Of a stretch of 64,000 nt of DNA, positions 44,908 through 47,702 are shown one piece after another (positions within the stretch are counted from its first letter, which is position 1; every line of letters starts with the position of its first letter). This DNA is from Escherichia coli (lineage in GTDB: Bacteria > Pseudomonadota > Gammaproteobacteria > Enterobacterales > Enterobacteriaceae). The stretch lies in assembly GCF_045037415.1 (NCBI RefSeq), contig NZ_CP173438.1, one strand, 5' to 3'. The notes under the pieces were generated by a model, which made no database searches, was not told the DNA's origin, and worked only from the letters and a program-made list of their open reading frames with translations. The translations under genes and the position numbers were made by a program.

Positions 44908-45939
44908 ATGTCTGCATTTACCCCGGCAAGTGAAGTCTTGCTGCGTCACAGTGATGATTTCGAACAAAGCCGTATTCTGTTTGCCGGAGACTTACAGGAT
45001 GACCTGCCCGCGCGTTTAGATACCGCGGCCAGCCGTGCTCATACCCAGCAATTCCACCACTGGCAGGTGTTAAACCGCCAGATGGGGGATAACGCCCGTT
45101 TTAGCCTGGTCGCCACGGCGGATGATGTCGCTGATTGCGATACTTTGATTTACTACTGGCCGAAGAATAAACCGGAAGCCCAGTTCCAGTTGATGAATTT
45201 ACTTTCTCTGCTTCCGGTGGGCACGGATATTTTTGTCGTTGGCGAGAACCGCAGCGGCGTGCGCAGCGCCGAGCAGATGCTGGCCGATTATGCGCCGTTG
45301 AATAAGGTAGACAGCGCCCGTCGCTGCGGCCTCTATTTTGGTCGTCTGGAAAAGCAGCCGGTATTTGATGCCAATAAATTCTGGGGCGAATACAGCGTCG
45401 ATGGCTTGACGGTCAAAACGCTGCCGGGCGTGTTTAGCCGCGACGGTCTGGATGTCGGCAGTCAGTTGTTGCTCTCGACGCTAACCCCGCACACGAAAGG
45501 TAAAGTGCTGGATGTCGGCTGCGGCGCAGGCGTTCTTTCCGTTGCTTTTGCGCGCCATTCACCGAAGATCCGCCTCACTCTGTGTGATGTTTCTGCACCA
45601 GCGGTAGAAGCCAGTCGCGCAACACTTGCTGCCAACAGTGTTGAAGGTGAAGTCTTTGCCAGCAACGTCTTTTCCGAGGTGAAAGGTCGTTTTGATATGA
45701 TCATCTCCAACCCGCCGTTCCACGATGGGATGCAAACCAGCCTGGATGCGGCGCAAACGCTGATTCGCGGCGCGGTGCGTCATCTTAATAGCGGCGGCGA
45801 GCTGCGAATTGTAGCGAACGCCTTCCTGCCTTACCCGGACGTGCTGGATGAGACATTTGGTTTCCACGAAGTGATTGCGCAAACCGGGCGCTTCAAGGTG
45901 TATCGCGCCATTATGACCCGCCAGGCGAAGAAAGGTTAA
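44908..45939 (+). CDS. rsmC: 16S rRNA (guanine1207-N2)-methyltransferase RsmC, 343 aa
   Basis: ORF 44908..45939; SAM motif [12 protein letters not shown] and [10 protein letters not shown]. Confidence 0.94.
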
Positions 45940-46069
45940 GTATCTGATATCTGTCGCCGCATACCGTGTTGGATGCGGCGTACACGCCTTATCTGACCGA
46001 CAAACGAATTATCCACAATCCGCTGATGGACATTTTTCCAGCAATTACACCTCTGTCGATAATTAACTA

Positions 46070-46097
46070 TTGACGAAAAGCTGAAAACCACTAGAAT
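46070..46097 (+). promoter_or_regulatory. Candidate sigma70 promoter for the tRNA-Leu operon (-35 ttgacg, 16-nt spacer, -10 tagaat), AT-rich upstream region
   Basis: Near-consensus hexamers about 40 nt upstream of first tRNA. Confidence 0.6.
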
Positions 46098-46138
46098 GCG
46101 CCTCCGTGGTAGCAATTCTTTTTAAGAATTGATGGTAT

Positions 46139-46225
46139 GCGAAGGTGGCGGAATTGGTAGACGCGCTAGCTTCAGGTGTTAGTGTCCTTACGGACGTGGG
46201 GGTTCAAGTCCCCCCCCTCGCACCA
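46139..46225 (+). tRNA. leuQ: tRNA-Leu (anticodon CAG), 87 nt, copy 1
   Basis: gcgaaggtggcggaattggtagacgcg...ttcaagtcccccccctcgcacca; long variable arm; CAG in anticodon loop; encoded CCA. Confidence 0.95.
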
Positions 46226-46253
46226 AAAACCACGTTGATATTGCTCGCACTGG

Positions 46254-46340
46254 GCGAAGGTGGCGGAATTGGTAGACGCGCTAGCTTCAGGTGTTAGTGT
46301 TCTTACGGACGTGGGGGTTCAAGTCCCCCCCCTCGCACCA
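46254..46340 (+). tRNA. leuP: tRNA-Leu (anticodon CAG), 87 nt, copy 2 (one-base variant: agtgttcttacgg vs agtgtccttacgg)
   Basis: Same sequence as copy 1 except a single C to T difference in the variable arm. Confidence 0.95.
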
Positions 46341-46374
46341 AACGAGGCAATATCAAAAAAAGTAAGATGACTGT

Positions 46375-46461
46375 GCGAAGGTGGCGGAATTGGTAGACGC
46401 GCTAGCTTCAGGTGTTAGTGTCCTTACGGACGTGGGGGTTCAAGTCCCCCCCCTCGCACCA
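46375..46461 (+). tRNA. leuV: tRNA-Leu (anticodon CAG), 87 nt, copy 3
   Basis: Identical to copy 1. Confidence 0.95.
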
Positions 46462-46499
46462 ATTATCTTTACTTCTTTTCTTGTCTCTTCACTGTTTTA

Positions 46500-46736
46500 T
46501 CACCCCTGATTCAAATTCATTATCATCAGCATGATGCCAGCAATAAGCGCCAGGCACGATGGTAGCAAAACGTAATGCCGTAACTGTTTGTGATACAGCA
46601 TCACCGGCGTCAATACCAATCCCATCAGAATGACAATCCGCCATTGATCCGGCGATAAATCCGCATACATCAGCCCTGTAATCAGCAATCCCGGCAGCAA
46701 CACTCCCCAGCCACTGCCCAGCGTACGTTGCAACAT
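46500..46736 (-). CDS. yjjZ: Small inner-membrane protein YjjZ, 78 aa (start MLQRTLGSGWGVLLPG)
   Basis: ORF 46500..46847; hydrophobic small protein divergent from fhuF. Confidence 0.75.
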   Translation of the reverse strand: MLQRTLGSGWGVLLPGLLITGLMYADLSPDQWRIVILMGLVLTPVMLYHKQLRHYVLLPSCLALIAGIMLMIMNLNQG

Positions 46737-46754
46737 GGTTTCATCTCTTTCATT

Positions 46755-46790
46755 GATAATGATAACCAATATCATATGATAATTTTTATC
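46755..46790. promoter_or_regulatory. Fur-box-like sequence (gataatgataaccaatatcatatgataattt) in yjjZ-fhuF intergenic region
   Basis: Repeated GATAAT/ATCAT hexamers resembling Fur consensus GATAATGATAATCATTATC. Confidence 0.6.
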
Positions 46791-46838
46791 ATTTGCAAGC
46801 CAGAGAAATCCCTTGCTATCGGATAAACCTATCGCTAG

Positions 46839-46858
46839 GATTAGCAATCATTATCATT
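46839..46858. promoter_or_regulatory. Fur box (gattagcaatcattatcatt) about 20 bp upstream of fhuF start
   Basis: Close match to the Fur consensus immediately upstream of the iron-regulated fhuF. Confidence 0.7.
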
Positions 46859-46876
46859 TAGATTACTATCCCGATT

Positions 46877-47665
46877 ATGGCCTATCGTTCCGCACCGCTC
46901 TATGAAGATGTTATCTGGCGAACGCATCTCCAGCCACAGGATGCTGGGCTTGCACAAGCCGTACGTGCGACGATCGCCAAACATCGTGAACATTTGCTCG
47001 AGTTTATCCGCCTGGATGAACCCGCTCCGCTTAACGCCATGACGCTGGCGCAATGGTCATCACCGAATGCGCTAAGTTCTCTACTCGCGGTCTATTCCGA
47101 TCATATCTATCGCAACCAACCAACGATGATCCGCGAGAACAAACCGCTGATCTCACTATGGGCACAATGGTATATCGGCCTGATGGTGCCACCATTAATG
47201 CTGGCGCTACTGACGCAGGAAAAAGCATTAGATGTGTCGCCGGAACATTTCCATGCTGAGTTTCACGAAACCGGCCGTGCCGCCTGTTTCTGGGTCGATG
47301 TGTGTGACGATAAAAACGCAACACCACATTCGCCGCAGCAGCGAATGGAAACGTTAATCAGCCAGGCGCTGGTTCCGGTTGTGCAGGCACTAGAAGCGAC
47401 CGGAGAGATCAACGGCAAACTTATCTGGAGTAATACCGGTTATTTGATCAACTGGTATCTCACTGAGATGAAGCAACTGCTCGGCGAGGCGACGGTTGAA
47501 TCGCTGCGCCATGCCATCTTTTTTGAGAAAACGCTCACGAACGGTGAAGATAATCCACTCTGGCGTACCGTGGTACTGCGCGACGGCCTGCTGGTGCGCC
47601 GCACTTGCTGCCAGCGTTATCGCTTACCGGATGTGCAGCAATGTGGCGATTGTACGCTGAAATGA
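46877..47665 (+). CDS. fhuF: Ferric-siderophore reductase FhuF (2Fe-2S), 262 aa
   Basis: ORF 46877..47665; C-terminal Cys cluster CCQRYRLPDVQQCGDC. Confidence 0.93.
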   Translation: MAYRSAPLYEDVIWRTHLQPQDAGLAQAVRATIAKHREHLLEFIRLDEPAPLNAMTLAQWSSPNALSSLLAVYSDHIYRNQPTMIRENKPLISLWAQWYIGLMVPPLMLALLTQEKALDVSPEHFHAEFHETGRAACFWVDVCDDKNATPHSPQQRMETLISQALVPVVQALEATGEINGKLIWSNTGYLINWYLTEMKQLLGEATVESLRHAIFFEKTLTNGEDNPLWRTVVLRDGLLVRRTCCQRYRLPDVQQCGDCTLK

Positions 47666-47702
47666 AAGCACTGCCGGGGAAGTAAACCCGGCATCATGCG
47701 GA

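Follow-up and report, generated by a model that had tools for sequence, protein, structure and literature searches.

Fur sites of unequal strength between the divergent genes yjjZ and fhuF of Escherichia coli

Introduction

The genes yjjZ and fhuF of Escherichia coli are read in opposite directions from a short, shared intergenic region that contains two groups of Fur sites. Such an arrangement raises the question of whether the two groups form one regulatory unit or whether each belongs to the promoter that it lies on. The sites of the region are already known: Chen, Lewis, Shultzaberger et al. (Nucleic Acids Res 2007; PMC2189734) predicted both clusters and footprinted both with DNase I in K-12, and the sites are also catalogued in EcoCyc (cited in PMC10301672). 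The Fur titration assay has a fhuF::lacZ fusion as its classical reporter (PMC2189734), and the regulon tables of PMC10164565 include fhuF. An initial annotation of the DNA analysed here, made from the letters, described a canonical Fur box beside fhuF and a second, Fur-like cluster nearer yjjZ, and suggested that both genes may be regulated by iron. Here we locate and score the Fur sites in a 64-kb stretch of an E. coli genome (the window), place them relative to the two promoters and follow both through related genera.

Methods

We built a symmetric 19-bp Fur matrix from 16 K-12 sites with footprint or gel-shift evidence, leaving fhuF out. The sites were reconstructed from the coordinates in Table 4 of Chen et al. 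(PMC2189734) after conversion to the current K-12 record, and each was checked both against the distance to the gene start given there and against the present K-12 annotation. The 16 19-mers align to AATGATAATcATTATCATT and score 17.3–29.3 bits when each is left out in turn. K-12 v2 positions were transferred by the relation window = 46877 + 4603686 − coordinate, anchored on the start-codon coordinates of fhuF and yjjZ in PMC2189734.

Two kinds of evidence are combined below. This analysis supplies the sites with their scores and conservation, the degree to which they exceed chance, and their placement relative to the promoter hexamers. Fur protection, transcription starts and derepression in a fur mutant or at low iron come from published work on identical sequence.

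Results

The window is E. coli DNA. A 421-bp query across yjjZ–fhuF has a 100% identical counterpart in strain 4/1-1 and finds a match in 5424 of the 5426 complete E. coli genomes, where the flanking genes are annotated as yjjZ (DUF1435) and fhuF. Three of the 5429 matches to the region lie on plasmid-typed records, and at least one genome carries three copies. The gene order is rsmC, three tRNA-Leu genes, yjjZ (minus strand), fhuF (plus strand), bglJ and yjjQ, opposite in orientation to K-12. The tRNA genes stand in tandem at 46139–46458 (leuQ, leuP and leuV in K-12) and converge on the 3' end of yjjZ. An Rfam scan of 45900–47700 at a permissive E-value returned these three tRNAs and a sub-threshold naRNA4 match; the interval between yjjZ and fhuF gave no match to a known RNA element. 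The naRNA4 match, which is REP-like, lies in the rsmC–tRNA interval (45959–45998) and scores 24.1 bits against a gathering score of 59.5.

YjjZ matches DUF1435 (PF07256) over residues 1–75 of 78, with 125.3 bits against a cut-off of 22.9 (E = 1.1e-36). FhuF matches PF06276 (FhuF, 92.7 bits, cut-off 25.2) and PF11575 (FhuF_C, 29.5 bits, cut-off 20.5), and the C-terminal 2Fe-2S motif C-C-x10-C-x2-C reported in the initial annotation is present as CCQRYRLPDVQQCGDC, residues 244–259. The gap itself, 46737–46876, extends from the ATG of yjjZ (A at 46736, minus strand) to that of fhuF (46877) and has the annotated length of 140 bp. Its G+C content is 32%. It differs from K-12 by four substitutions (46738, 46805, 46823 and 46838), none of them within a Fur site. 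The features of the region are collected in Table 1.

Table 1 Genes, promoter elements, Fur sites and Fur-protected regions at yjjZ–fhuF, in window coordinates
Feature	Position	Strand	Basis
yjjZ coding sequence, 78 aa, DUF1435 small membrane protein	46500–46736, including stop codon	−	Open reading frame, Pfam, RefSeq annotation of identical E. coli sequence
High-affinity Fur-protected region 'fhuF1'	46748–46800		K-12 v2 4603763–4603815 (PMC2189734), mapped; sequence identical to K-12
Fur site A (ATTGATAATGATAACCAAT), 14.2 bits	46752–46770		Matrix scan
Fur site B (AATGATAACCAATATCATA), 22.9 bits	46758–46776		Matrix scan; contains the gataatgataaccaatatc core
yjjZ transcription start, 27 nt before ATG	46763	−	K-12 v3 4,605,777 (PMC10301672), mapped
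yjjZ −10 hexamer TATGAT	46771–46776	−	Direct count, consensus scan; PMC10301672
Fur site C (TATGATAATTTTTATCATT), 22.3 bits	46775–46793		Matrix scan
yjjZ −35 hexamer TTGCAA	46793–46798	−	Consensus scan; PMC10301672
Homology junction between the yjjZ-side and fhuF-side spacer of other genera	46799–46803, approximate		Alignments
Putative fhuF −35 hexamer TTGCTA	46813–46818	+	Published start and 17-bp spacing; CTTGC invariant across genera
Low-affinity Fur-protected region 'fhuF2'	46830–46883		K-12 v2 4603680–4603733 (PMC2189734), mapped
fhuF −10 hexamer TAGGAT (K-12: TATGAT)	46836–46841	+	Position relative to published start
Fur site D (ATTAGCAATCATTATCATT), 14.0 bits	46840–46858		Matrix scan; the 'canonical' box of the initial annotation
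fhuF transcription starts	46846–46847	+	K-12 v2 4603717 and 4603716 (PMC2189734, Figure 5 legend), mapped
fhuF coding sequence, 262 aa, ferric-siderophore reductase	46877–47665	+	Open reading frame, RefSeq annotation, Pfam, cysteine motif

Four of the five best matrix matches in the 64 kb fall within the gap. The ranking runs 22.9, 22.3, 14.2 and 14.0 bits for the four gap sites, followed by a 14.0-bit match in the yjjZ coding sequence, and the next best position anywhere scores 9.4 bits. Dinucleotide shuffles of the window (300) contain on average 0.3 sites of at least 14 bits and 0.007 sites of at least 20 bits. When the gap was shuffled 5000 times, any site of at least 14 bits appeared in 2.2% of the shuffles, 22 bits was reached in 0.06%, and four sites of at least 14 bits were never seen together. 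The classical consensus GATAATGATAATCATTATC, with up to three mismatches allowed, has a single match in the 64 kb, at 46755–46773 with two mismatches, against a shuffle average of 0.03. The consensus match, the matrix scores and both sets of shuffles confirm that the gap holds two groups of Fur sites, far above chance. The two strings quoted in the initial annotation were also correctly placed, gataatgataaccaatatc at 46755–46773 and gattagcaatcattatcatt at 46839–46858.

The two groups differ in quality. Sites B and C score inside the range of the validated sites, site B having two mismatches to the classical consensus. Both fit the 9-1-9 Fur box model AATGATAATnATTATCATT, and site C contains the 7-1-7 motif as TGATAATTTTTATCA, at 13 of the 14 specified positions. 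Sites A and B overlap at the 6-bp offset typical of classical Fur boxes. Site D falls below the validated range, yet it is among the top five in 64 kb, and it is marginal on its sequence alone. It has 7 mismatches to the classical consensus in 19 positions, a level that 75 positions of the window equal or better. Unlike a classical box, it is perfect in one half-site only: the right half, AATCATTATC, matches the consensus and the other half is degenerate. A site that overlaps it 6 bp downstream (46846–46864) reaches 4.5 bits.

The element that had been called canonical is thus half-degenerate and has a low-affinity footprint. For the cluster described as Fur-like, the location and the binding of Fur hold, but not the subordinate rank, since this cluster is near-consensus, high-scoring and of high affinity. 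The strength labels have to be reversed, because consensus, matrix score and published footprint all put the yjjZ-side cluster above the fhuF box.

The fifth-ranking match (ATTCAAATTCATTATCATC, 14.0 bits, 46509–46527) was considered as a third operator and rejected, as it lies in coding sequence, over the last codons of yjjZ, and outside the footprinted fragment. It is also found in K-12. The homologous sequence scores at most 2.2 bits in five other Escherichia loci, so the match is probably fortuitous. A separate observation concerns a sigma-70-like sequence on the plus strand (TTGATA-16-TATGAT, 10/12; 46753–46780), which lies within the strong cluster and faces fhuF. No transcription start has been reported at this place, and the match may simply reflect the resemblance of Fur boxes to promoter hexamers.

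The published footprints give the same picture. Fur protected both regions in DNase I experiments on K-12 DNA that is identical to the window at every Fur site (PMC2189734). The model of that study scored the strong cluster at 22.3, 20.8 and 16.1 bits and the weak one at 14.6 and 9.3 bits, as compared with 22.9, 22.3 and 14.2 bits and 14.0 and 4.5 bits here. The clusters and their strong/weak order are the same, and the strongest published site, centred at K-12 v2 4603779, corresponds to window position 46784, the centre of site C (PMC2189734). An independently built matrix therefore recovers the published architecture. The window differs from K-12 in the four bases outside the Fur sites, one of which changes the fhuF −10 hexamer.

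Relative to the yjjZ start (PMC10301672), the centres of sites A, B and C fall at +2, −4 and −21, which means that the high-affinity cluster blankets the yjjZ promoter; site A covers the start site to +12. The start and its sigma-70 promoter were detected in vitro and in a fur deletion and were absent in the wild type, according to the results of the ROSE study (PMC10301672). That paper is inconsistent on the in vivo signal in the fur mutant, which its results report and its discussion suggests was not seen. The promoter spacer measures 16 nt by direct count and by consensus scan, and is written as 18 (TTGCAA-18-TATGAT) in PMC10301672. In nine E. coli strains yjjZ forms part of the core Fur regulon, and its expression rises when fur is deleted (PMC10164565). 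It is also in the direct Fur regulon of the uropathogenic strain CFT073 (PMC7157518), and iron represses a PyjjZ-gfp reporter in Salmonella (PMC8432900).

Site D has its centre at +2.5 from the fhuF start (PMC2189734) and overlies the −10 and +1 positions, while the strong cluster lies from −62 (the centre of site C) to −85 relative to the same start. Each of the four sites overlaps the core promoter (−35 to about +10) of the adjoining gene, A to C that of yjjZ and D that of fhuF. With K-12 identical to the window at the Fur sites, published footprints, regulon data and reporters bear out the suggestion that both divergent genes are under iron and Fur control.

The base at window position 46838 distinguishes the fhuF −10 hexamer here from that of K-12. 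A 53-mer carrying the G of TAGGAT is exact in 3686 of the 5426 E. coli genomes, so the K-12 form TATGAT, which is nearer the promoter consensus, seems to be the minority allele. Other genera carry TAGGAT, TAGTAT or TATTAT at this place.

A scan for FhuF with one genome per species gave 12 loci. Six are from Escherichia (including E. coli, E. albertii and E. whittamii), and in all of these the two genes are direct neighbours, 140 bp apart, and share the sites of the window. The other six come from Citrobacter (four), Salmonella enterica arizonae and Klebsiella grimontii. In five of these six, yjjZ and fhuF are separated by a reading frame of about 350 aa on the strand of fhuF; in a second C. 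amalonaticus assembly the intervening frame is called as 205 aa only. Pfam places the two products that were scanned in the family GGDEF (E-values 4e-47 and 5e-46), and the gene occupies about positions 310–1390 in each of the loci L019–L022, L024 and L026. In Salmonella it is presumably STM4551.

Each operator is kept beside its own gene in the 12 loci and four genera. Site B lies about 22 nt from the yjjZ ATG in the other genera, often as an identical 19-mer, and scores 18.2–25.5 bits across Escherichia, Citrobacter, Salmonella and Klebsiella. The fhuF site lies 28–37 nt from the fhuF ATG in the six non-Escherichia loci, at 14.0–21.0 bits. In a Klebsiella MAG contig too short to reach yjjZ, the fhuF site alone is visible (10.7 bits), so that site D spans 10.7–21.0 bits over the four genera. 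In nine enterobacterial sequences its core, AATCATTATCATTTAGATT, hardly varies, the one change being in Salmonella. Site C behaves differently: its position scores 22.3 bits in every Escherichia locus and at most 13.8 bits in L019–L024 and L026 (Citrobacter, Salmonella and Klebsiella). It may either have been strengthened in the lineage where fhuF became adjacent or have decayed in the others.

The strong 'fhuF1' cluster is best read as the operator of yjjZ, because the core promoter of yjjZ lies under it and it keeps its place beside yjjZ in the other genera. The interposition of the GGDEF gene likewise supports an assignment of the strong cluster to yjjZ and of the weak site to fhuF, and argues against one obligatory unit. 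Variation within E. coli points the same way. The two 53-bp footprint sequences are exact in 3738 and 3686 of the 5426 genomes, and only 825 have an exact copy of a 53-bp stretch that bridges the interval between the two, a crude count given that megablast needs a 28-nt exact word.

Alignment of the Escherichia gap with the other genera suggests how the two operators came together. The gap follows the yjjZ side of their spacer to about 46800 and the fhuF side from about 46802, and it looks like the scar of a deletion. We consider it likely that a deletion of about 1.3 kb in an ancestor of Escherichia removed the GGDEF gene and fused the two control regions. A loss on the Escherichia side is favoured by the phylogenetic distribution of the GGDEF gene, with Klebsiella as outgroup. 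After the fusion, the −35 hexamers of yjjZ and fhuF stand back to back, 14 bp apart. Where the GGDEF gene is present, the strong Fur cluster stands between it and yjjZ, so this diguanylate cyclase gene might be iron-regulated too. Literature titles and abstracts were searched for control of the Salmonella GGDEF gene by Fur or iron and gave nothing relevant.

The assignment of one operator to each promoter has to be weighed against a different reading of the same clusters, in which both act jointly as a single fhuF operator and repression of yjjZ is a by-product. Fur bound at the strong cluster would then recruit or stabilise Fur on the weak site, by spreading or looping. We regard this as possible but rather doubtful. 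Chen et al. speak of both sites as belonging to 'the fhuF promoter region', name them fhuF1 and fhuF2, and report footprints that extend from strong sites at higher Fur concentration (PMC2189734). Sites C and D are also only 65 bp apart from centre to centre, and the second yjjZ-side site has its full strength of 22.3 bits in Escherichia, where the clusters are close, as against 13.8 bits or less for the homologous sequence elsewhere. However, the strong cluster sits exactly on the −35, −10 and +1 positions of yjjZ, the two footprints are separated by an unprotected gap at about 46801–46829, and 65 bp corresponds to 6.2 turns, so that helical phasing is not clearly in register. The clusters lie about 1.3 kb apart in Citrobacter, Salmonella and Klebsiella, and the site next to fhuF is still kept in all three genera, which argues that fhuF does not depend on the strong cluster.

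The two operators would ancestrally have belonged to separate promoters, and it is also conceivable, though we think it unlikely, that the strong operator of yjjZ, newly adjacent after the deletion, alters the occupancy of Fur at fhuF as well. If this were true, the regulation of fhuF in E. coli, including its use as the sensitive reporter in the Fur titration assay, would be a lineage-specific result of the deletion.

A further alternative concerns the fhuF side alone. The element next to fhuF could serve mainly a function other than Fur binding, for example as part of an OxyR repression site or of a conserved 5' leader, and its resemblance to a Fur box would be incidental. This would account for the half of the 19-mer that does not match the Fur consensus, and for the invariant block, which runs past the Fur site into TTTAGATT and then to the ATC. 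Oxidised OxyR may repress fhuF, according to a review (PMC8115020), and the OxyR consensus ATAGnTnnnAnCTAT-N7-ATAGnTnnnAnCTAT matches 13 of the 20 specified positions at 46818–46854, among the top 10 of the window. This match overlaps the −35, the −10 and the start site of fhuF as well as site D. It is weak and not very distinctive, as ten positions of the window do equally well or better and 37 reach at least 12 of 20. Fur does protect the region in vitro, if weakly (PMC2189734), and site D was found among the five best of the 64 kb with a matrix blind to fhuF. The homologous site is a better Fur match in several genera (15.2–21.0 bits), and control by OxyR and by Fur can coexist. We therefore hold a mainly non-Fur role of this element to be very improbable.

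That the matches are chance products of AT-rich DNA with no regulatory role might be argued from the low G+C content of the gap, the likeness of Fur boxes to generic AT-rich promoter sequence and the promoter-like match inside the cluster, but this reading is effectively refuted by the gap-composition shuffles (22 bits in 0.06%, four sites of at least 14 bits never), by the conservation across genera and by the published footprints (PMC2189734) and regulon data.

Discussion

We conclude that the yjjZ–fhuF gap of E. coli very probably holds two back-to-back sigma-70 promoters, each shut by iron-loaded Fur on its own core promoter. Fur bound to iron would occupy each core promoter and, presumably by occlusion, block RNA polymerase. 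The yjjZ promoter lies under sites A, B and C (14.2, 22.9 and 22.3 bits), which jointly make up the high-affinity footprint. The fhuF promoter has a single, weaker site (D, 14.0 bits) over its −10 and +1 positions. With three sites forming a high-affinity footprint, yjjZ is expected to be tightly repressed when iron is plentiful. The fhuF gene is well known to be easily derepressed, and the weaker site D on its −10 and +1 would fit this behaviour.

Back-to-back promoters under Fur are found elsewhere in the genome. At fepA–fes and fepD–entS, a single central Fur cluster is generally read as serving both promoters. These regions, and similarly fepB–entC, resemble yjjZ–fhuF in that iron-repressed sigma-70 promoters lie back to back in a short gap with clustered Fur sites overlapping at 6-bp offsets (PMC2189734, Tables 3 and 4). 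In contrast to them, each promoter of yjjZ–fhuF has a separate footprint of its own, the two footprints differ in affinity, and the two operators seem to have been joined in Escherichia only, after the loss of the GGDEF gene.

The sites discussed here have been footprinted and catalogued before and belong to the conserved E. coli Fur core regulon, so they hold little value as a discovery. The strengths given to them in the initial annotation are corrected, and the sole addition is the proposal that, in evolution, the promoters came to lie back to back when the GGDEF gene was lost. The more interesting question at this locus is the function of YjjZ, a 78-aa membrane protein tightly repressed by Fur. 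The comparison suggests that gene loss can bring independent operators into one short gap, and that clustered sites in a divergent region need not have evolved as one unit.
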